From the NCBI GenBank assembly GCA_947581835.1, contig CANPVV010000005.1, positions 1-63,114 of the forward strand: 63,114 nucleotides of DNA, read 5' to 3'. This DNA comes from an uncultured Bacilli bacterium (GTDB lineage Bacteria > Bacillota_I > Bacilli_A > RF39 > UBA660). Of the stretch, positions 4,962 through 20,865 are shown piece by piece. Below the pieces are notes generated by a model, which was not told where the DNA came from, did not search any database, and saw only the letters and a list, made by a program, of their open reading frames with translations. The position numbers were made by a program, and so were the translations under genes. Every line of letters starts with the position of its first letter. The first letter of the stretch is position 1.

Positions 4962-7900
4962 TTACTCCATTTTCTTTTGTTTCACAATTATTTTATCCAA
5001 ACTTGCTAATACTGCAGGTAACAAAATTAATATTAACAAAACTGAACATAACGTTCCCTGTGAAATCGTTATACAAATCTTTGATGCTATCGCTGATGCA
5101 AAATAACCTACAATCAAAGTAACAATTATAAGGATTGATGCTGAAGTAATAATCGTATGAATTGACTCATTATAAGCCTCAATTACTGCATCTTTAACCT
5201 CCATAGTTCTTCTTAATTCTAAATAATAAGAAGTATACAATATCGCATAATCAATTGTAGCCCCCATTAATATACTTTGAACAATAAGGATTGCAATAAA
5301 GTAAACATTATCTCCCATAAGTGAAAGTATACCCATCGTTAAATAAACTGCACATTGAATAACCAAAACTAAAATAACTGGAATAATTAAAGATTTAAAT
5401 GTAAACGCTACAACCACAAATATTACAATCATTGTTATAATAGTTATATAAGTAAGTTCTTGATTAAATGTTTTACTCATATCATAAGCCATTGGTGAAT
5501 CTCCAATAACATAAAATTTATCCATTCCTTCACTTAACTTATCCCGCAAATTTTCTATAAATTTAAAAGTATTTTTTCCTTCTTTTTCATACTTTGTATT
5601 TAAAACTATTCGTGAATAATTCTTACCTCTAATTAAATTTTTTGCATCACTTATTTTAGTTTTTGCCTCTCTTATTTCTTCTCGCATCTCATCATCAATA
5701 AATTCATTAAATCTCTCATCATTAAGTATATCTTTATTTAAATACTGGACAAATTCTTCAATTGTTAAAACATAATTATAATCATACTTATACTGACTTC
5801 CATAATAAATATATAAAATATCTATTGTATTTTTATCAATATCTTCAGTAAGTTTCTCTACTAATTTATAAATTCCCTCATGAGTATATTTAGCTCCATT
5901 ATCTACCCCTTTTATAATCTCTCTTAAAGCCTGCAATTTACTTATTTTATCTTTACTAAACTCTTTACCATATTCTTTATCACTAACTACCTCATTTAAT
6001 AAATAATTAATAAACTCTTTCAAAGAAACTTTATAATTTTTATCTAAATATTTATAATCATACAATCCATACAACAATTTTAAATCATCTTCATTAACAC
6101 TTGATAATGTTGCCAAATCTTTACTACTATATTTAACCTCACCAATAACCCCTTCCATAACCTGTTTAACCAAATCTAAATCACTTAATGTTTCTTCGTC
6201 TAATTTTCCTTCTAAAACTTCATCATCTTTATGCTCTAAAATAAATGTAACAAAATTAATAGGACTTATAACCGTATCTCCTCTATTATCAATATATAAA
6301 GTATAAATATCTTTAACCATTTTTTCATCTATTCCCAAATATCTTCCAAGTTCATCATAACTAAACTTATCATTATCAAGAGTAGAATCCATTATATCTT
6401 TTAAAAATCCTAAATTACTCCATGTTGCTCCATCTATTTTATCTTTAATAAGCGAATTTTCTTTATTAGCAATAATAAGATTAACAAGTTCACTCAAGCT
6501 AGCTGTCCAATTATTTGTATTACCACCATAATAATTAATTAAAGCATACATATTACAAGCATCACTTTTACTAAGTCCTAAAGTTTCTGCCATTTGAGTA
6601 GCACTAAATTTAGGTGGGTTATCCGCTAGCCCAGAATCAATAGCTAATTGTAGTATTTTTAGTTTATTAATTGTTGCCTCATCTAATCCTCCACTTTCGG
6701 CAAAACTTAAAACAGTTTCAATAAAAGTTTTAGGACTAAATTTTACTCCATCTTTACCAGGTAAATCATAAACCATATCAACCAAACCAGGAGCAAGCTT
6801 ATCAAAAACACCTTTCAACTCATCTTTATTCATTTCTTTATTATCAATACCATCTTTATTTTCTACAAAAGGTTTTAACATTTCAAGTAAACTTATATCA
6901 CTTTCTTTAATATATTCATTTTCAACTAATTTTTCACTACCCAAAATAAATTCATCTAAACTAAATGTCGAACCATCATCTATATCTTTATACTTCAAAA
7001 GTAAAAGCTGTTTTATCATATCTTCTGGAACATTCAAATACCTAGAAAGTTCTAATGCTCCCATATCTTTAGTAATTGTTCCTCTATCACTAAAAGTTTT
7101 TAATAACTGAATACTATCCTTCATTTCTCTATCAAACATATCTTCATATTCTTCATTATTCATTACATTTTTTACTACAAAATTAGCAAACTGATTAATT
7201 GACAATTTTAAATCTATATCACTTAAACTAATATAATATTTATACAAATCTTTAACTGCCATCTCATCTATTGCAAATAAGCTAGCCATTTCTTTATAAT
7301 CCAGTTTTTTTATTATATCTTCTTTATTAATAAACTTTTTTAACTTATCTATTCTCTCCCTTTGTTCTTCATCAATTTTTTCGCCATACTTCTTACTAGT
7401 TAAAACATCTTTATCCATAAATTCCACAAAGTCATTTATGCTCAATTTAGCATTTTTATTTATTGCCAAATAATAAATCATTAAATCTTCAACATTACTT
7501 TTATCTATCTCTAAAATACTTGCTAAATCACTTATTGTTCTTTTCTTATTTACATTATTTTTAGTACTAAAATTCTTTAATCTTTCTATATTATTTTTCA
7601 TATCTTTATCAATTTTATCTTTTAAATCTTCATTATTATACGCTTTATCTTCAATAAAATTAATAAACTCACTTAAAGATATTTTAACATTAATATCTTT
7701 ATTATAATAATTATAATATAATATCTGCAATAAATAATCTGCTATATCCATATCCGAACCTAAATCTTTTACTTTATCCATTAATTTATCATAAGTTAAA
7801 TCTTCATCAATTGTATTTCCATAAGCTAGTACTTCATCAACCAATCTATCATCATCAATTTGGTCCAAATATTTTTTTATTATATCTTCATCTTTATTTT

Positions 7901-9047
7901 GATAAATAATTGCCATCTGATTATTTTCTTGAAAAACCTGAGAAATTTTATCTTCTTCCGAATTAGTATAAAAAAATCCTAAATTTCCTTTTAAAACATA
8001 ACTTCCCACACAAGCTACCAAAAATAATGGTAATGCTATATAACGCATTTTATAACTTGCTTTACCTATTTTATCCATCTTAAATACTGGTGTTTTCTTC
8101 TTAGTCTTAACAATTAATTTATCACACATTAAAATTAAAGTCGGTAAAACTAAAAATATACAAACTAAACTAAATAATACCCCTTTAGCTAAAACTAACC
8201 CTAAGTCTTTTCCAATTGTAAAACTCATAAATACTAAAGCTAAAAGTCCCGCGATTGTTGTAACTGAACTACTAGATATTGCCTGAAAAGCATGATGCAA
8301 AGCCTCTTTCATTGCCTCTACTTTATCCTTATATTTCTCTTTTTCTTGCTCATATCTGGAAATAAGCATAATTGAATAATCCATTGATAAAGCAAGTTGT
8401 AATATTGCACTTATTGATTTAGTTATATTTGAAACATTAGAAAATATAATATTTGTTCCATTATTAAGTAAAACAGCCATCAATATTGCCGTCAAAAACA
8501 AAAAAGGTTCCACATAAGATTCACACATTATAATCAAAATAATTAAAGCACAAAATATTGCCAATAAAACTATCCATATAGGTAGTACTTCTCCATTTGT
8601 CTGAGCAATATCGCCACTTGTATAATAAGTATAATCTTTAAAATGATCTTCAATCTCTGAAAAAACTTCACTAGCCTTCAAAGAATCTTTTTTATCATCA
8701 ACTGTTAAAGTAAACAAAGTATAATTATCTTTATTATAATCTTCACTCTCATCATAAAGTACTTCACTTACCCCATCAATATTTTCTAAATAAAGAATAA
8801 TCTCATCTATTTCCTCTTTTTTTAAATCTTGAAACATTAAATTTAAAGAACTAGTTTGATAATCACTAAACTCTTCGTTCATGATATCCATACCTTGTCT
8901 CGTTAAAGAGGTATCAGGTAAATATTGAGCCATATCATAATTAATTTTAACTTTATTCGCTAAAAAAACCGAAAATATTGTTAAAACTATCATTATAAAT
9001 AATATATAATATCGCTTATCAATAATAAAATCTGTTATTTTTCGCAA
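4962..9047 (-). CDS. MMPL/RND family transporter with large repetitive extracytoplasmic insert
   Basis: TTG start. Two TM bundles with LALSMDYSIML and GATIDYAILY motifs, plus a long central helical-repeat region. Confidence 0.9.
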   Translation of the reverse strand: MRKITDFIIDKRYYILFIMIVLTIFSVFLANKVKINYDMAQYLPDTSLTRQGMDIMNEEFSDYQTSSLNLMFQDLKKEEIDEIILYLENIDGVSEVLYDESEDYNKDNYTLFTLTVDDKKDSLKASEVFSEIEDHFKDYTYYTSGDIAQTNGEVLPIWIVLLAIFCALIILIIMCESYVEPFLFLTAILMAVLLNNGTNIIFSNVSNITKSISAILQLALSMDYSIMLISRYEQEKEKYKDKVEAMKEALHHAFQAISSSSVTTIAGLLALVFMSFTIGKDLGLVLAKGVLFSLVCIFLVLPTLILMCDKLIVKTKKKTPVFKMDKIGKASYKMRYIALPLFLVACVGSYVLKGNLGFFYTNSEEDKISQVFQENNQMAIIYQNKDEDIIKKYLDQIDDDRLVDEVLAYGNTIDEDLTYDKLMDKVKDLGSDMDIADYLLQILYYNYYNKDINVKISLSEFINFIEDKAYNNEDLKDKIDKDMKNNIERLKNFSTKNNVNKKRTISDLASILEIDKSNVEDLMIYYLAINKNAKLSINDFVEFMDKDVLTSKKYGEKIDEEQRERIDKLKKFINKEDIIKKLDYKEMASLFAIDEMAVKDLYKYYISLSDIDLKLSINQFANFVVKNVMNNEEYEDMFDREMKDSIQLLKTFSDRGTITKDMGALELSRYLNVPEDMIKQLLLLKYKDIDDGSTFSLDEFILGSEKLVENEYIKESDISLLEMLKPFVENKDGIDNKEMNKDELKGVFDKLAPGLVDMVYDLPGKDGVKFSPKTFIETVLSFAESGGLDEATINKLKILQLAIDSGLADNPPKFSATQMAETLGLSKSDACNMYALINYYGGNTNNWTASLSELVNLIIANKENSLIKDKIDGATWSNLGFLKDIMDSTLDNDKFSYDELGRYLGIDEKMVKDIYTLYIDNRGDTVISPINFVTFILEHKDDEVLEGKLDEETLSDLDLVKQVMEGVIGEVKYSSKDLATLSSVNEDDLKLLYGLYDYKYLDKNYKVSLKEFINYLLNEVVSDKEYGKEFSKDKISKLQALREIIKGVDNGAKYTHEGIYKLVEKLTEDIDKNTIDILYIYYGSQYKYDYNYVLTIEEFVQYLNKDILNDERFNEFIDDEMREEIREAKTKISDAKNLIRGKNYSRIVLNTKYEKEGKNTFKFIENLRDKLSEGMDKFYVIGDSPMAYDMSKTFNQELTYITIITMIVIFVVVAFTFKSLIIPVILVLVIQCAVYLTMGILSLMGDNVYFIAILIVQSILMGATIDYAILYTSYYLELRRTMEVKDAVIEAYNESIHTIITSASILIIVTLIVGYFASAIASKICITISQGTLCSVLLILILLPAVLASLDKIIVKQKKME

Positions 9048-12700: not shown

Positions 12701-13450
12701 TTATGGTCTAAGTCCTGTTCCTCCCTGCAAAGTAATAGTCTCTCCCGTAATATATGATGCCCCTTCACTTGCTAAAAATAAACAAGTAGCTCCAATATCT
12801 TTTTTCGCATCTCCAAATCTTCCCATTGGAATACTACCAATTGTTTTATTATAAATATCCGGATTTTCTTCCTTCCATTTAGCTAACTCTTGAGACATAA
12901 CCAAAGGACAAACAACATTTACATTAATATTATCTGGTCCCCATTCAGTTGCAGCTACTCTACTTAAACCTCTAATTCCTTCTTTACTTGCCGCATAACT
13001 AGATTGAGCAATTCTCCCAAATAATCCAGCCCCACTAGCAAAATTAATAACTGACCCCTGTGTTTCTTTTAAATAAGGAAAGCACTCTCTCATATAATAA
13101 AATGTTGCATATAATCCACTCTCTATAGCTAAATAAAAATCTTCATCGGTATGTTCTACTAGCATTTTCCCAGACTTAGAAGCTTGAGCATTATTTATTA
13201 AAACGTCAATTCTCCCAAATTTTTTAATTGTCTCACTAACAACCATTTTAACATTACTAACTTTAGTTCCATCAGCCACAATACTTAAAACTTCCCCATT
13301 ATATAAACTCTCTAATTTTTCTTTAGCTTTATCTAAACTTTCTTGGTGCCTTCCTGTAATAACAACTCTATAACCTGCCTCTAAAAAAGCTTCTGCTACT
13401 CCAAAACCTATTCCTTTACCTCCACCTGTAATAATTACTACTTTTTGCAT
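12701..13450 (-). CDS. SDR oxidoreductase, 12alpha-hydroxysteroid dehydrogenase-like
   Basis: TGGGKGIG, NNAQAS, SGLYATFYYMREC, YAASKEGIRGLSRVAATEWG. Resembles clostridial 12alpha-HSDH as recalled. Confidence 0.75.
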   Translation of the reverse strand: MQKVVIITGGGKGIGFGVAEAFLEAGYRVVITGRHQESLDKAKEKLESLYNGEVLSIVADGTKVSNVKMVVSETIKKFGRIDVLINNAQASKSGKMLVEHTDEDFYLAIESGLYATFYYMRECFPYLKETQGSVINFASGAGLFGRIAQSSYAASKEGIRGLSRVAATEWGPDNINVNVVCPLVMSQELAKWKEENPDIYNKTIGSIPMGRFGDAKKDIGATCLFLASEGASYITGETITLQGGTGLRP

Positions 13451-13534
13451 TTATCATTCTCCTAACTATCTCTATTATAATAAAACTTAACTAAATATTC
13501 AATTAAAATTATTATTTAATTTTAAATAAAAAGA

Positions 13535-13560
13535 AAGACGAGAGGTTAAAGACTCGTCTT
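13535..13560 (-). terminator. Terminator, copy 1 of 3 identical
   Basis: AAGACGAG-N10-CTCGTCTT stem, U-rich tail on the minus strand. Confidence 0.85.
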
Positions 13561-13585
13561 AAAAAGTTATTAGGTTTTTTTTAAA

Positions 13586-14992
13586 TTATTTTAGAACTTT
13601 TTTAGTTGCAGTTCCAACAACGCCTAAACTAGAGATAGCCATTGTAACTAAGCTTCCAATTGCATCAAAAGTTTTAGGATTTTCACTTGGTTGATTATCA
13701 CCAGTATTAGGTTTTTGCTCATCACTTGGTTGTTGATTATCACCAGTTGATGGATCTTCAGTAGTAGCTCCATTTTTAACAACTACAGTATCATTATCTT
13801 TATTAATAGTATAACTTGAAGTAGTTGCAATTAATTCCTTAATCGTTTCTTCATCATCATCTGGAGTTCCAGCTTGACCAGTAGTTGTACCTCCTAAAGC
13901 AACTAAACCATAGTTAAATATACCAGCATAAATAGATCCTTTAAGATCATCTTTGTCAGTATTAATATAAACAGCAGGTTGATCATTTCTACCAGCACTA
14001 CCACTAGTAAATTCTCCACCTTTAATAACTACACCTTTACCACCTAAAACTAAAGCATAACCATTACCACTAGTAACATTTTTACCCTCATGAGTAAATT
14101 TACCACCTTCAATAGTCATATTAGTTTCAGCATTAACTAAAACTGTATTTACAGTGTTATCTTTACTAACAAATTCACCATCTTTAATAGTAATATTTGC
14201 ATATCCATCAACTTTTACAGCTGCCTTACTTGTAGAAATATATTTACCTCCATTAATTGAAACAGTAGATACATTTCTCTTTGAAGTATTAGAAGCAACT
14301 AAAACAGATTGATCAGTTGTTTCAAATTCAGCATCTAAAGCAACATTAGAATTTAATGGATCAACACTAACTCCAACTTTAGCTTTTACTGAAGCACCAC
14401 TATTAATAGTAACTGTTGCAACACCACTTCCTGTAACACTTGTAGTACTTACAAAAGTCGCACTTGAAACATCATACTCTACTTCATAACTAGAAGTAAA
14501 TTGGCCTCCTCTTTCAACTTCTACCATAGATCCAGAACTAATTGAAGTTCCTGTTACTTTACTATCATCAGCACCAACAATACTTAAAGCACCTTTGTTT
14601 AGTACTTTAAATCCAGTAGATGGTAATGTTAATTCATAACCATTTAATTCAATAGTAGTTGGAACATCAATTCCAGTACCACTTGGATTAACATCTGTAG
14701 TTATAGCAGTTGTTAAAGAATTATCTTCTAATAACTTGATTTTGATACTATAAATATCAACGCCATCAGTTAAAAGTTGATTAATTTCAGTTTGAACAGC
14801 ATCAATGTCTTCAAAATATGCACTTTCATTACGTTTTTCTTCATTATCAATTACAGCATGAACAGTACATTCTTGATTTTTTCCAGAACCACAGTTTGTT
14901 GGATTATCAGTTGCAGCATCAACATTTCCCATTGTTACAAACGCAACAACAGAAATAATAACTAAACCCAATAATTTTTTTAGATTTTTCAC
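13586..14992 (-). CDS. Cell-surface beta-helix-like protein, cassette 1
   Basis: GTG start, signal peptide, I.GG.F/YT repeats, C-terminal NPKTF + hydrophobic segment + KKVLK. Confidence 0.85.
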   Translation of the reverse strand: MKNLKKLLGLVIISVVAFVTMGNVDAATDNPTNCGSGKNQECTVHAVIDNEEKRNESAYFEDIDAVQTEINQLLTDGVDIYSIKIKLLEDNSLTTAITTDVNPSGTGIDVPTTIELNGYELTLPSTGFKVLNKGALSIVGADDSKVTGTSISSGSMVEVERGGQFTSSYEVEYDVSSATFVSTTSVTGSGVATVTINSGASVKAKVGVSVDPLNSNVALDAEFETTDQSVLVASNTSKRNVSTVSINGGKYISTSKAAVKVDGYANITIKDGEFVSKDNTVNTVLVNAETNMTIEGGKFTHEGKNVTSGNGYALVLGGKGVVIKGGEFTSGSAGRNDQPAVYINTDKDDLKGSIYAGIFNYGLVALGGTTTGQAGTPDDDEETIKELIATTSSYTINKDNDTVVVKNGATTEDPSTGDNQQPSDEQKPNTGDNQPSENPKTFDAIGSLVTMAISSLGVVGTATKKVLK

Positions 14993-15017
14993 AATCTATT
15001 TCTCCTTTCCGACATAT

Positions 15018-15049
15018 AGTATAACACATACCCCCCCCCCGTCTGTCAA
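15018..15049 (-). promoter_or_regulatory. sigmaA promoter with G10 tract in the spacer
   Basis: TTGACA-GAC-G10-TATGTGT-TATACT, spacer 20 bp. Confidence 0.85.
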
Positions 15050-15182
15050 TAGGTTTTTTTACTAATTTTACAAAATTCAAATTTTATAAAAAATAATAAT
15101 ATTATTACTGTTAAACTAAGCCTAATAAAAAAACTACTAAAATAAACTACTATTAAAATATACACTTTTTAACACAAAAAGA

Positions 15183-15208
15183 AAGACGAGAGGTTAAAGA
15201 CTCGTCTT
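15183..15208 (-). terminator. Terminator, copy 2
   Basis: Identical to 13535-13560. Confidence 0.85.
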
Positions 15209-15233
15209 AAAAAGTTATTAGGTTTTTTTAAAA

Positions 15234-16850
15234 TTATTTTAGAACTTTTTTAATTGTAGTTCCAACAACACCTAAACTAGAGATTGCCATTGTAACTAAA
15301 CTTCCAATTGCATCAAAAGTTTTAGGGTTTTCACTTGGTTGATTATCACCAGTACCAGGTTTATTATCATCACCAACACTAGGATCTTGAGTAGCAGATA
15401 CAATAGATAATGTAATAGTTACGTCACTATTAGGCATTACAAACTTACCATCAGTTAAAGCAACTTCTTTATTGTTAGCATCTAAAATTGTATATTTAAC
15501 TACATATCCTTCATTAGCAACTACTTTAACAATATCTTCAATACTAATAGGTTGTCCAGCAACAACATTTTTTGGAGTAGATAATGATTCAACTTTACCA
15601 TTTAAAATAGTTTGATCTTCATTAACACCATTTAAAGTTACAGTATGTTCTTTACCAACATAAGTTACTCCATCAACAGTAATACTATCTAAATCTTTAG
15701 CTAAAGCTTTACCACTTGCTAAAGCAGAAGTTTTACCTTCAAATGTTCCTCCATAAACAATGCCATTAAGATTAGAAACTATACTAGAAGTTCTGAAAAG
15801 TGCTTCTTGATCTTCTGGACTAACAAAAGTACCATCATTTACTTTTACAGAAGTATATTGAGAATTTTGTCCATCAAAATATAAAGCATTTCTCTTTTCG
15901 CTAGTAAATTTACCTCCATCAATTTCTAATTTAATTTTTCCAGCATAACTAGCATTTCCAACTACTGCAACAGCAGCTCCAGTCCAACCAGCATTACTTT
16001 GTACACTACCATCTAAACCAGTATCAGCTTGTCCATCACCATTAGCAGTAAATTCTCCACCTTTAATAGTAACAGTACCACCTTTAACTACTAAAGCCTC
16101 AGTACCAGTAACTTTAGCATCAGTAATTGTCCAGTTTCCAAGACCAGATGCATATAAAGCAGTATTATGCTCAGAAGTATAAGAACCTCCATTAACATTA
16201 ATAACAGTTGGTCTTGATGCATTTTTAATTACACCTTGAACTTGAATTACATAACTTGTAGTATTCCAAGTACCATTTAAATCAATAGTTACATTATTAG
16301 CAGTATTACCTTTTATACTAGAACTATCACTATCTTCAGGATAAACAATTAAACCAGCGTATCCTTCAACTTTAGCTTTAGAACCAATACTAACAGTAGT
16401 TTTATTAGTTGTAGTATTATCGCCATAAACAGCAATTACAGCTTGAGTTGGTTTACTTAAACTTGTTGTTTCAGAAATAATACTAACATTATCTGCTGTT
16501 AAACTTCCTCCTTCTTTTACAATTAATGTATTAACACTATCTTCATCTACGTCCTTAATAGTTCCACCATTACCATTAATTTTTAGGGAACCAGTAATAG
16601 TTATATGTTCTTTTAATGTTAATACAACACCTTCTTTAAGATTTAAAGTAACATTTCCTGTTACAGCAACATCACCATCAATTTCTTGACTTTCAGTTAA
16701 AGTACATACAGCAGTTGTATCTTTAGCACTTTTTAAACAACTAGCTACATCTTTGCCTACAACTGTAGTTGTTGCAGAAACATTACCAGCAAATCCAAAA
16801 GCAATTCCAGATATTGTCATTAAACCCAATATTCTCTTTAGATTTTTCAC
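15234..16850 (-). CDS. Cell-surface beta-helix-like protein, cassette 2 (extra domain before the linker)
   Basis: Same N- and C-terminal blocks as its neighbours, plus an ANEGY...FVMPNSDVTIT module. Confidence 0.85.
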   Translation of the reverse strand: MKNLKRILGLMTISGIAFGFAGNVSATTTVVGKDVASCLKSAKDTTAVCTLTESQEIDGDVAVTGNVTLNLKEGVVLTLKEHITITGSLKINGNGGTIKDVDEDSVNTLIVKEGGSLTADNVSIISETTSLSKPTQAVIAVYGDNTTTNKTTVSIGSKAKVEGYAGLIVYPEDSDSSSIKGNTANNVTIDLNGTWNTTSYVIQVQGVIKNASRPTVINVNGGSYTSEHNTALYASGLGNWTITDAKVTGTEALVVKGGTVTIKGGEFTANGDGQADTGLDGSVQSNAGWTGAAVAVVGNASYAGKIKLEIDGGKFTSEKRNALYFDGQNSQYTSVKVNDGTFVSPEDQEALFRTSSIVSNLNGIVYGGTFEGKTSALASGKALAKDLDSITVDGVTYVGKEHTVTLNGVNEDQTILNGKVESLSTPKNVVAGQPISIEDIVKVVANEGYVVKYTILDANNKEVALTDGKFVMPNSDVTITLSIVSATQDPSVGDDNKPGTGDNQPSENPKTFDAIGSLVTMAISSLGVVGTTIKKVLK

Positions 16851-16875
16851 AATCCATTTCTCCTTTCCGACATAT

Positions 16876-16908
16876 AGTATAACACATACCCCCCCCCCCG
16901 TCTGTCAA
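16876..16908 (-). promoter_or_regulatory. sigmaA promoter with G11 tract in the spacer
   Basis: TTGACA-GAC-G11-TATGTGT-TATACT, spacer 21 bp. Confidence 0.85.
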
Positions 16909-17096
16909 TAGCTTTTTACTAATTTTACAAAATTCAAAAATTTATAAAACTCAATATCTACTAAACTATATAATTAAGGAAACTTAAATCAATATCCAAA
17001 TAAAAATAAATAAACATTTATAATACATAAAGTTTACATTTTATTTAAAAAATAAAACAATAAAACTTTTAATTAATTATTATTCCAAAAAAAAGA

Positions 17097-17122
17097 AAGA
17101 CGAGAGGTTAAAGACTCGTCTT
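17097..17122 (-). terminator. Terminator, copy 3
   Basis: Identical to 13535-13560. Confidence 0.85.
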
Positions 17123-17147
17123 AAAAAGTTATTAGGTTTTTTTTAAA

Positions 17148-18491
17148 TTATTTTAGAACTTTTTTAATTGTAGTTCCAACAACACCTAAACTAGAGATTG
17201 CCATTGTAACTAAATTTCCAATCGCATCAAAAGTTTTAGGATTTTCACTTGGTTGATTATCACCAGTATTAGGTTTATTATCATCACCAACATTAGGATC
17301 ATTTGGTTCAGTTGTTCCTGGATCTTCGGTTCCTGGATCTTCAGTTTTTTCAGTTCCAACAGTTACAACACCATTTTCATTAGTAATTTTTGAATTGCCA
17401 ACTAATACTTTAGTTGCTTCTTCAACATCATATGTTACAGTCCCAACTTTTGTATCTTCAACAATTCCATTAGTAAACGAACCACCTGTAATAATTTCAG
17501 ATTGTTCATCTAGGAATTTAATATCACTAATAGAAATAGCAGCCTTATCTCCAGAACTTGTAAAGTTTCCACCAGAAATTGCAAATTTTCCAATATAGGC
17601 ATCTGCAATAGACATACTATAACTCTTGCTTGAGCTAATTGTTCCATCAGAAATATTTAAAACAATATTTTCACCATGAGCATTACGACTTCCATCAACT
17701 TTAATAGTAGCTACACTACTCTTAGTAGCACTTATTGTACCGCCAGTAATATTTAATGTTCCACTTTTTAATTCAAAAGCAGGAGCACTTGCACTCGTAG
17801 TAGTATATGAACCTCCTAGAACATTAACAACACTTTTACCAGCATCAATTCCTACTAATTGACCAGTTCCGCTTACTTTAGCATTAAGATTTATAGTTTC
17901 CTTTCCAGATACAGCACAATCAACTAATTCAACTCCAAGATTAGTCCATTCTCCACCAATATTAACTTCAACATTATTATTAGTAGAATTAGTAATACCA
18001 ATCACAGCTTGAGTTCTAACATTAGTACCATCAACTTTAACACTATCATCAATAGTTAAAGTTGCATCATTTGAAGTTGCATTAAGAGTTAAAGTACTTG
18101 TTGCAGTAGATGTTGCAAAATTAATATAACCATTTTTAATAGTTAAATTAGTACCATTTGCAGCAGCTATACTACCAATAGTACCACCAGTACCTCCAAG
18201 AGTTAAAATTTTGCCATTCAAATCAAGAACTATATCCTTATCTGTAATTGTCAAAGCATTAGTTAGTGTTACACTCTTTGAAAGAGTAATAGTACCGCTC
18301 TCGTCAATGGCATTAGCAGCAGCTACAAGTGTAGAATAACAACCATATCCTGTATCAAACTTAACGTAAGCTACATCAGAAGCACTACATGAATCAGGAC
18401 TAGATACAGTAGTAGCATGAACATTCATAGTTCCAACAAATCCTAAAGTTGAAACAACCAATAAACCTAACATATTTTTTAGATTTTTCAC
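17148..18491 (-). CDS. Cell-surface beta-helix-like protein, cassette 3
   Basis: Signal peptide, LDLNGKILT and I.GG.FT repeats, TEDPG tandem linker, NPKTF tail. Confidence 0.85.
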   Translation of the reverse strand: MKNLKNMLGLLVVSTLGFVGTMNVHATTVSSPDSCSASDVAYVKFDTGYGCYSTLVAAANAIDESGTITLSKSVTLTNALTITDKDIVLDLNGKILTLGGTGGTIGSIAAANGTNLTIKNGYINFATSTATSTLTLNATSNDATLTIDDSVKVDGTNVRTQAVIGITNSTNNNVEVNIGGEWTNLGVELVDCAVSGKETINLNAKVSGTGQLVGIDAGKSVVNVLGGSYTTTSASAPAFELKSGTLNITGGTISATKSSVATIKVDGSRNAHGENIVLNISDGTISSSKSYSMSIADAYIGKFAISGGNFTSSGDKAAISISDIKFLDEQSEIITGGSFTNGIVEDTKVGTVTYDVEEATKVLVGNSKITNENGVVTVGTEKTEDPGTEDPGTTEPNDPNVGDDNKPNTGDNQPSENPKTFDAIGNLVTMAISSLGVVGTTIKKVLK

Positions 18492-18516
18492 AATCCATTT
18501 CTCCTTTCCGACATAT

Positions 18517-18547
18517 AGTATAACACATACCCCCCCCCGTCTGTCAA
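18517..18547 (-). promoter_or_regulatory. sigmaA promoter with G9 tract in the spacer
   Basis: TTGACA-GAC-G9-TATGTGT-TATACT, spacer 19 bp. Confidence 0.85.
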
Positions 18548-18709
18548 TAGGTTTTTCACTAATTTTACAAAATTCAAATTTTAACTATCATCCAATATTT
18601 AATTCCAAAAAAAACACATAAAAAAAAGCCCTATATTAAATCTATAGTGCTTTCTTCATCTATCTAAGACTTAAAAGAAGTTAAACTTTACATATTTTTA
18701 ACATACTTT

Positions 18710-19246
18710 TTAAACAGTTTTACTAACTTGATAAACTTCTACTTCTACTGGTGTTTCTTGACCAAACAAATCAATTAATACATTAAGACGATTATTTTCT
18801 AAATCAATACTATCAACAGTTCCCATCATACCTTTAAATGGTCCATCAACAATACTAACTTTATCTCCAACTGCCATTTCTGACTCAATATTAACTCGAC
18901 TCATTCCCATATTCGCTAGTATCTTATCAATTTCTTGTGGAAGTAAAGGCGTAGGCTTAGCTCCTTTTCCAGAAGAACCAATAAAACCTGTAACTCCCGG
19001 TGTATTTCTAACTATATACCAAGCCTCATCACTCATAACCATTTCAACTAAAACATAACCTGGAAACATTTTCTTAACTTTTTCTTTTTTTACTCCATCT
19101 TTAGTTTCAATTTCTACAGTCTCTGGAATAATTATTCTATGAATATAATCTTGCATTCCCATAGATTCTGCTTTAGCTTCCAATTTTTCTTTAACTTTAG
19201 CTTCATGTCCTGAATAAGTATTAACTACATACCATTCTTTTTCCAT
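18710..19246 (-). CDS. nusG: Transcription termination/antitermination factor NusG
   Basis: WYVVNTYSGHE, FPGYVLVEM, VRNTPGVTGF, KOW GPFKG, LFGQETPVEV. Confidence 0.98.
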   Translation of the reverse strand: MEKEWYVVNTYSGHEAKVKEKLEAKAESMGMQDYIHRIIIPETVEIETKDGVKKEKVKKMFPGYVLVEMVMSDEAWYIVRNTPGVTGFIGSSGKGAKPTPLLPQEIDKILANMGMSRVNIESEMAVGDKVSIVDGPFKGMMGTVDSIDLENNRLNVLIDLFGQETPVEVEVYQVSKTV

Positions 19247-20505: not shown

Positions 20506-20865
20506 TTAACAGCATCTATTATTTTCATAGACATTTTGAACTTCATTTTCCTCACAACAAGAATAAGTTGGTGTAAAAGTATGTCTATAAATATGATGAT
20601 TTATAATTCTTGTATTACAAGGTTGAATATGAGGTACTTCATGACAAATATATCTATGACAAACTGTTTCTCTTGGTGCCTCATAAACTGGTGGACAAAC
20701 ACAACCTGGAATTGCCTCTCCCATCATTCCCATATTTTGTTCGCCCATACCATAACCATAACCCATATTATTCATATTTTGTCCCATATCCATCGCAGGC
20801 ATCGCATCACTATAATATGCAGCCTCACTATAAGCTTCACAATCTCTTGTTTTATTTATTTTCAT
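20506..20865 (-). CDS. cotD: CotD-like spore coat protein
   Basis: PPVYE...HEVPHIQPCNTRIINHHIYRH, Cys/His-rich, with a Met/Gly/Asn-rich N-terminus. Confidence 0.65.
   Translation of the reverse strand: MKINKTRDCEAYSEAAYYSDAMPAMDMGQNMNNMGYGYGMGEQNMGMMGEAIPGCVCPPVYEAPRETVCHRYICHEVPHIQPCNTRIINHHIYRHTFTPTYSCCEENEVQNVYENNRCC

Follow-up and report, generated by a model that had tools for sequence, protein, structure and literature searches.

Poly-G promoter tracts in a tandem array of putative sortase-anchored beta-helix protein genes suggest a contingency locus in an uncultured Bacilli bacterium

The window analyzed here is a 63,114-nt stretch of DNA from an uncultured Bacilli bacterium of the RF39 lineage (contig CANPVV010000005.1 of assembly GCA_947581835.1). 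Its subject is an array of three surface-protein genes, g1, g2 and g3, that lie in tandem between an SDR-family gene and nusG. Our favored interpretation, which we consider fairly probable on the combined analysis, is that the array is a contingency locus, a set of tandem and separately transcribed genes for sortase-anchored beta-helix proteins whose promoters would be switched by slippage of a G run. Replication slippage would alter the length of each G run, and the altered run would in turn change the spacer of that promoter, so that each gene could go up or down independently, as phase or volume variation. Conversion between the array genes would maintain the similarity of both their switch modules and their anchor modules, and over evolutionary time it would allow copies to be gained, lost or exchanged.

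Poly-G tracts in the promoters of the array and of its relatives

Each unit of the array opens with a conserved 5' block that reads as a promoter, a ribosome-binding site (RBS) and the start of a signal peptide. On the coding strand the block runs in the order TTGACA, gac, the G run, tatgtgt, TATACT, about 12 nt, GGAG and the GTG-KNLK start. The three core promoters, all on the minus strand, were recognized from the sequence and by pattern match. That of g1 lies at 15018-15049 and reads TTGACA-gac-G10-tatgtgt-TATACT, with a 20-nt spacer and a TGn extended -10 box. The g2 promoter (16876-16908) is built in the same way with G11 and a 21-nt spacer, and the g3 promoter (18517-18547) with G9 and a 19-nt spacer. 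The extended -10 reads TGtTATACT in all three. The tracts themselves occupy 15031-15040 (10 G on the minus strand, C10 on the plus strand), 16889-16899 (11 G, minus strand) and 18530-18538 (9 G, minus strand). From the -35 box through the RBS, the length of the G run is the sole difference among the three copies.

The genome that holds the array (G000) is 1.29 Mb in size with 27.1% G+C. Its composition predicts 0.27 runs of G or C of at least 8 nt and 0.04 of at least 9 nt, and for both thresholds 4 were observed. Three of the four runs of at least 8 nt are the array promoters. The fourth, 9 nt long, is found on another contig (C20:13358-13366, or 2358-2366 of L002) inside an 87-aa open reading frame (ORF) with an N-terminal hydrophobic segment, where the G run encodes GGG. 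A one-base slip in that ORF would alter the C-terminal 20 residues, and there is no long alternative frame downstream.

An A/T-rich block of about 35 nt (TTTGAATTTTGTAAAATTAGT...) lies 5' of each -35 box, at 15050-15087, 16909-16944 and 18548-18583. It is kept in all three array copies and partly in relatives, and might serve as an UP element or as a site for a regulator. We also considered an invertible-promoter switch (inverton) and rejected it: a search for inverted repeats at the promoters gave weak AT-rich pairs only, and no pair recurred at all three.

The surface-protein family is narrow, as judged from sequence comparisons. When 150 other genomes were sampled across the bacterial family, one per genus, the promoter pattern was found in none of them (0/150), and the protein profile gave weak partial matches only, in 9/150. 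Among the 43 other species of the same genus, 13 had profile matches, often 3-6 per species. Queried with g2, a library of 5.8 billion protein clusters returned only 12 proteins at E <=1e-10. The nearest of these is 59% identical, so no strain-level relative is available. A metagenome contig collection had no match to the promoter pattern and none to the protein profile, and none of the collections searched (metagenome contigs, public runs and protein clusters) yielded a second strain of this species.

The family members of sister species carry the same kind of promoter tract. Loci fetched from the 13 sister species with family matches contained 20 tracts of 8-13 G, distributed over 8 species. 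All but one of them (19/20) sit between TTGA(C/T)N and TAnnnT hexamers, and the twentieth is cut off by the end of the locus. The bases flanking these tracts differ.

G runs also extend beyond the family. Runs of at least 9 nt are present in 33 of the 44 genomes of the genus, including species without the surface-protein family. We examined 15 tracts in two genomes of the latter kind (G138 and G158; L058, L061, L063-L066 and L069), and at least 7 of them lie in TTGAC-N-G10/11-N-TA...T promoters with 17- or 19-nt spacers, 5' of unrelated genes that include those for zinc-ribbon-like and membrane proteins. Several other tracts in these genomes are inside ORFs. The genus as a whole thus seems to have poly-G contingency loci. 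A more ambitious version of this idea, which we put forward only tentatively, is that this genus of uncultured gut Bacilli with small genomes has a contingency system resembling those of Campylobacter and Mycoplasma, with G9-G13 in the promoter spacers of many surface-protein genes and of other genes. Most copies would be off at 19-21 nt, rare slippage would turn on one beta-helix adhesin at a time and conversion would spread both modules to any cassette, giving a walled Gram-positive commensal a combinatorial, heritable and reversible coat.

Many contigs of these genomes start or end in a G run, such as the end of L005, G173:C47:1-9, G173:C70:1-11, contig ends in G171 and G167, and many others. 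Poly-G tracts therefore fragment bins, and some of the terminal G runs may be sequencing artifacts.

Conserved ends, divergent middles and the history of the array

All three genes are on the minus strand. The g1 gene (13586-14992) encodes a 468-aa surface protein with a signal peptide, beta-helix-type repeats, a linker and a sorting signal. In the 538-aa product of g2 (15234-16850), a predicted beta-helix is accompanied by a further beta domain (residues ~400-487), and g3 (17148-18491) encodes a 447-aa surface protein, also a predicted beta-helix. The insertion site is bounded on the right by the SDR-family gene (12701-13450, minus strand; Pfam adh_short_C2, 9e-51) and on the left by nusG (18710-19246, minus strand), an ORF whose orthologs in G138, G180 and L004 are 91-96% identical.

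The original prediction had described units with near-identical ends around highly divergent middles, and every measure of identity that we applied agrees with this description. A repeat finder delimited a 211-nt 3' family at 13528-13738, 15176-15386 and 17090-17300, with copies 90-97% identical, and a 5' family at 14909-15040, 16767-16898 and 18408-18539, with an upstream extension to 15087, 16944 and 18583. BLASTN against the whole genome found three copies of the 5' block (92-94% over 124-131 nt, E 3e-47). The 3' block was found in its three array copies (95-96% over 187 nt, E 1e-82 or lower) and in one copy only outside the array, a diverged one on contig C32 (84% over 163 nt). In 40-column windows of the whole-unit alignment, identity was 87-100% in the 5' stretch between about -82 and the start codon; in the 3' stretch, made up of the final ~130 nt of coding sequence and about 40 nt of flank, it was 90-100%. 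In the unit middles it ranged from 2 to 82% and was mostly 30-60%. The middles are about 30% identical as protein, and the whole proteins are 30-36% identical to one another. The mosaic composition claimed for the linkers was likewise evident in the protein alignment, in which TEDP occurs, VGDDNKP is common to g2 and g3, and GDNQQPS/EQKP is common to g1 and the paralog on contig C32.

Ends and middles place the array genes with different partners. The middle of g2 is 62% identical to that of a gene in one relative (G177) and the middle of g3 is 54% identical to that of a gene in another (G174). The g1 middle has 37-38% amino acid identity to three genes of a single relative, in a clade with a starred support of 99. 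In the maximum-likelihood tree of the middle domains, g1, g2 and g3 fall in three separate starred clades together with genes of other species, and a single clade for the three middles was rejected by the approximately unbiased (AU) test (delta lnL 306, p-AU 0.00018). The 3' modules, however, group by genome, with support of 93 for the window and starred support of 96 for the L004 pair, 99 for G173, 100 for G177 and 96 for G175. Forcing g2 to join its G177 partners, or g3 its G174 partner, in the 3' tree was rejected (p-AU 0.00013 and 0.0005); the groups compared in the AU tests were named after the BLAST results had been seen, which weakens the formal p-values somewhat. Within the array, the 3' modules are 93-96% identical as DNA; against the genes whose middles are closest, the figure falls to 43-49%.

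Because the middle and end trees conflict, recombination or gene conversion at the ends of the array is supported. The paralog on contig C32 is a useful control for constraint. Although it has almost the same anchor peptide, identity at the DNA level drops to 84% and the 3' flank is unrelated, so peptide constraint alone lacks the power to explain the identity within the array. Since the flanks differ between species, the middle types look old and the ends look to have been homogenized within each array afterwards. This combination is the simplest reading of the data, rather than the import of middles via the flanks. The proposal that the flanks act as recombination handles is thus upheld in part. 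The conflicting trees and AU tests speak for it, but the ends are also a complete promoter, RBS and signal-peptide start on one side and a complete sorting signal and terminator on the other. By sequence, the array units are complete genes that would be individually transcribed, not silent cassettes. As a device for fast variation, the poly-G tract is more likely than recombination at the ends.

The number of family genes at the nusG-SDR site varies between species. The site is empty in G138, where about 105 nt separate the SDR gene from nusG. G180 has one family gene at the site, with a C9/G9 tract, L004 has two, with G11 and G10, and the window has three. G177 and G175 have arrays of three or more beside sortase genes instead. 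Gain and loss of units, as originally proposed, is consistent with the 0, 1, 2 or 3 copies in sister species. Two further observations were made near the site. A 119-aa Cys/His/Met-rich ORF between ffh and a membrane-protein gene (window 20506-20865, L004 6533-6862) is conserved, and L004 has an extra 227-aa gene (7733-8416) between the membrane-protein gene and secE that the window is without.

Probable cell-wall anchoring and predicted fold of the array proteins

The conserved 3' block reads as the linker together with a sorting signal of the class B sortase type, with an unusual fifth residue, followed by a terminator. In order, it specifies the last part of a Pro/Asp/Gly-rich linker, NPKTF-D, some 20 hydrophobic residues, KKVLK and the stop codon. 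The C-terminal hydrophobic segment and basic tail, DAIGSLVTMAISSLGVVGT(A/T)(T/I)KKVLK, are present in g1, g2 and g3. Within the three 211-nt modules, all on the minus strand, the NPKTF sorting signals are at 13586-13681 (g1), 15234-15329 (g2) and 17148-17243 (g3), and the hairpins are at about 13535-13560, 15183-15208 and 17097-17122. The shared hairpin has a folding energy of -9.6 kcal/mol (z -3.1) and is followed by a T-run. A consensus terminator scan listed no terminator at the array because the hairpin loop is 10 nt, and Rfam gave no family match. At the other end of the proteins, direct reading of the signal peptide gives a basic MKNLK, a hydrophobic stretch of about 15 residues and V-x-A. 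AlphaFold2 modeled this segment as a detached helix spanning residues 3-21.

Class B sortases act on NPQTN- or NPKTG-type motifs. Compared with NPxT(G/N), NPKTF fits at positions 1-4 and has F at position 5. Relatives have NPQTY, NPNTY, SPATF, SPKTF, SPETG or NPQTG at the same position, and at the C-terminus of other proteins encoded in the array's own genome, NPQTG or NPETG precedes a hydrophobic stretch and a basic tail. The fourth paralog, on contig C32, is 492 aa long, and its C-terminus is nearly the same as that of the array proteins. Immediately downstream of this paralog is a gene for a class B sortase (TIGR03064, 175.9 bits with the cut-off at 153.75; Pfam Sortase, 1.2e-12), and the same pairing of a paralog with a sortase gene was found in 7 loci of relatives. 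The genome has two further sortase paralogs. The array proteins are probably anchored to the cell wall by a class B sortase.

The neighborhood of the sortase gene on contig C32 has other features. Just 3' of it (L001 710-2000) are two adjacent, partly duplicated ORFs of the PD-(D/E)XK transposase family, the longer of which matches Pfam PDDEXK_2 at 8.5e-18. Farther along (L001 5127-8664), three ORFs resemble, by eye, a spore-germination receptor operon of the GerA/GerC/GerB type.

Pfam and NCBIfam scans of g1, g2 and g3 gave nothing above cut-off, with Flg_new_2 on g2 (E 0.03) as the best match. The middle domains were examined by structure prediction, using alignments of 26 and 23 family members as AlphaFold2 inputs for g3 and g2, respectively. 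The models had predicted local distance difference test (pLDDT) scores of 81.8 for g3 and 83.5 for g2 and were confident over the mature parts. Foldseek against the PDB returned no match at E <=0.001, with E-values of 0.01 or higher, and because these were weak we turned to VIA-align, which compared the models with about 48,000 chains. This yielded Z scores of 18-23 for g3 and 19-28 for g2 (maximum 27.8), with matches spanning 280-318 residues at a root-mean-square deviation (rmsd) of about 3 Å. Among the matched chains are the Vag8 passenger domain, PfbA, AlgE4, PL6 lyases, polygalacturonases and phage tailspikes, all of them right-handed parallel beta-helices. The middles of g2 and g3 are accordingly modeled as right-handed beta-helices of stacked three-stranded coils, in line with the common beta-helix fold that the original prediction suggested testing. 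A common fold alone gives no function; the array proteins may be adhesins or glycan-binding or glycan-cutting proteins.

Weighing the alternatives and comparison with known systems

Several points weigh against a slippage switch in a sortase-anchored coat. The fifth motif residue of characterized class B sortase substrates is G or N, not F. The -35 and -10 boxes were recognized by their match to consensus rather than through mapped start sites, and the spacers of 20, 21 and 19 nt are beyond the 16-18 nt accepted by a consensus promoter scan, which left the array promoters unlisted for that reason. The TGn extended -10 could lessen the weight of the -35 box and of its spacing. Among 17 distinct poly-G promoters of the family, the window's three included, we counted spacers of 15 nt (n=2), 16 nt (n=1), 17 nt (n=1), 19 nt (n=6), 20 nt (n=5) and 21 nt (n=2), with 2/17 assigned by eye where the script had mis-picked the -10 box. 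A single promoter (1/17) thus has 17 nt and 2/17 are within 16-18 nt, so an ON length is not evident. Paralogs without a G run had 17-nt spacers in 2/2 cases with readable boxes. Public sequencing for this organism comprises 4 runs from one sample, stored as contigs of 160-2500 nt at a depth of 3-8. The contigs of all 4 runs stop at or beside the G runs, and no listed piece bridges a tract; one contig joint, from 14664 to 19002, was disregarded because its shorter side has only 20 letters. Heterogeneity of tract length within the population is neither seen nor visible in these contigs. G-run lengths taken from short reads or databases have, moreover, been described as unreliable (PMC9187656).

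Some of these points would suit another account, in which the genes are ordinary tandem paralogs, their ends are alike by functional constraint, the G run is a fixed spacer and recombination is not continuing. Every conserved block does have a plain function, no tract-length heterogeneity could be shown, and an extended -10 may tolerate incorrect -35 spacing. We nevertheless regard this account as unlikely. Peptide constraint gives 84% DNA identity in the C32 paralog, versus 93-96% in the array together with an identical non-coding terminator, and the conflict between middle and end trees is significant. Nor does the account predict that G runs of at least 9 nt, expected 0.04 times in the genome, should be at all three promoters, that run length should be the sole difference between the core promoters, or that 20 tracts should be present in relatives despite differing flanking bases. 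The G run might also be a protein-binding or structural promoter element that sets the spacing of an activator, as in Bordetella fim, or in part an assembly artifact, with regulation of a conventional kind. A spacer of 19-21 nt is too long for a plain sigma-A promoter, an A-rich block is conserved upstream of the -35 box, and contigs break at the tracts, all of which would fit. However, the tract occupies the same promoter position in 8 other species that were assembled independently, which rules out an artifact, and a tract 8-13 long with varying neighboring bases is a poor fit to a fixed binding site. Spacing for an activator would also remain length-dependent and hence phase-variable. We give little credence to this explanation.

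Programmed cassette switching, in which the flanks would serve to copy middles at high frequency to and from an expression site, on the model of pilE/pilS or vlsE, strikes us as quite improbable. It would account for near-identical flanks around divergent middles, for the incongruent trees and for the variation in copy number at one site among species. Yet the array copies and all relatives examined are complete genes, each with its own promoter, RBS, start, sorting signal and terminator, and among them there are neither promoterless silent cassettes nor a single expression site. The promoters share no recurrent inverted repeats, no recombinase gene was seen among the ORFs listed beside the array, and the flanks are only 43-49% identical to those of the genes with the closest middles.

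We thus return to the contingency locus as the favored interpretation. If the G runs switch, they would produce stochastic variation of an adhesin coat, which bears on colonization, phage escape and host immunity. Mutational switching of surface proteins is well documented in Neisseria, Treponema, Helicobacter and Mycoplasma pathogens. For walled low-GC gut commensals such documentation is far scarcer, and inversion switches dominate the literature found. The literature searched, mostly at the level of abstracts, did not describe poly-G promoter switches for this bacterial group. The reading of metagenome bins would be affected as well, because assemblies break at poly-G tracts. The locus is in addition a clean natural example of recombination keeping switch and anchor modules alike around old, divergent cores, and it brings out an unusual sortase B motif (NPKTF/NPQTY).

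The nearest parallels for the switch are promoter-spacer homopolymers. The porA, fetA and opc promoters of Neisseria meningitidis carry, between their -10 and -35 boxes, an unstable homopolymer that is thought to alter sigma-factor binding (PMC2791445, PMC7864442). The array resembles these in having a homopolymer in the promoter spacer of a surface-protein gene. Unlike the neisserial loci, which are single genes of a Gram-negative bacterium, it consists of three tandem paralogs, each with a tract, in a Gram-positive-type member of the Bacilli. The ON spacer of porA is 17 nt, whereas the assembled spacers here are 19-21 nt. In Treponema pallidum, tp0126 and the tpr genes have an upstream poly-G of 7-11 that varies in vivo, and most molecules are of poorly permissive length (PMC7864442). 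As in our array, a family of surface-protein genes has an upstream poly-G at each gene, but Treponema is a spirochete and its products are outer-membrane proteins. Length variation and reporter effects have been measured there.

The homogenized ends have a counterpart in Helicobacter pylori, where inter-locus gene conversion among babA, babB and babC makes chimeras and moves a slippage repeat between paralogs (PMC4552749). Both systems have paralogs homogenized at their ends, and in the array the phylogenies of ends and middles conflict. The bab loci differ in being dispersed, in having a CT repeat inside the coding region and in encoding outer-membrane beta-barrels rather than putative sortase-anchored beta-helices. 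The vlp genes of Mycoplasma hyorhinis are likewise surface-protein genes in tandem whose promoter and signal regions are conserved, and a homopolymer in each promoter spacer switches each gene independently. That tract is poly(A), the products are lipoproteins whose C-termini are repetitive, and the organism has neither a cell wall nor a sortase.

In the gut commensal Bifidobacterium breve, G11/G12 tracts control sortase-dependent surface structures via replication slippage (PMC9187656). The tract in that high-GC actinobacterium is inside the coding sequence, where it acts as a frameshift switch, and the structures are pilins. For the protein fold, the beta-helix of Streptococcus pneumoniae PfbA (PDB 4mr0 and 3zpp) matches both of our models, with Z of 22.2 and 25.2-25.6 and rmsd of 3.0-3.4 Å over 296-318 residues. 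Sequence identity to PfbA is 10-11%, and PfbA is not known as a multigene phase-variable family. It is anchored via LPXTG. Set beside these systems, the array reads to us as a contingency locus of a known type in a new lineage and with a new protein family.

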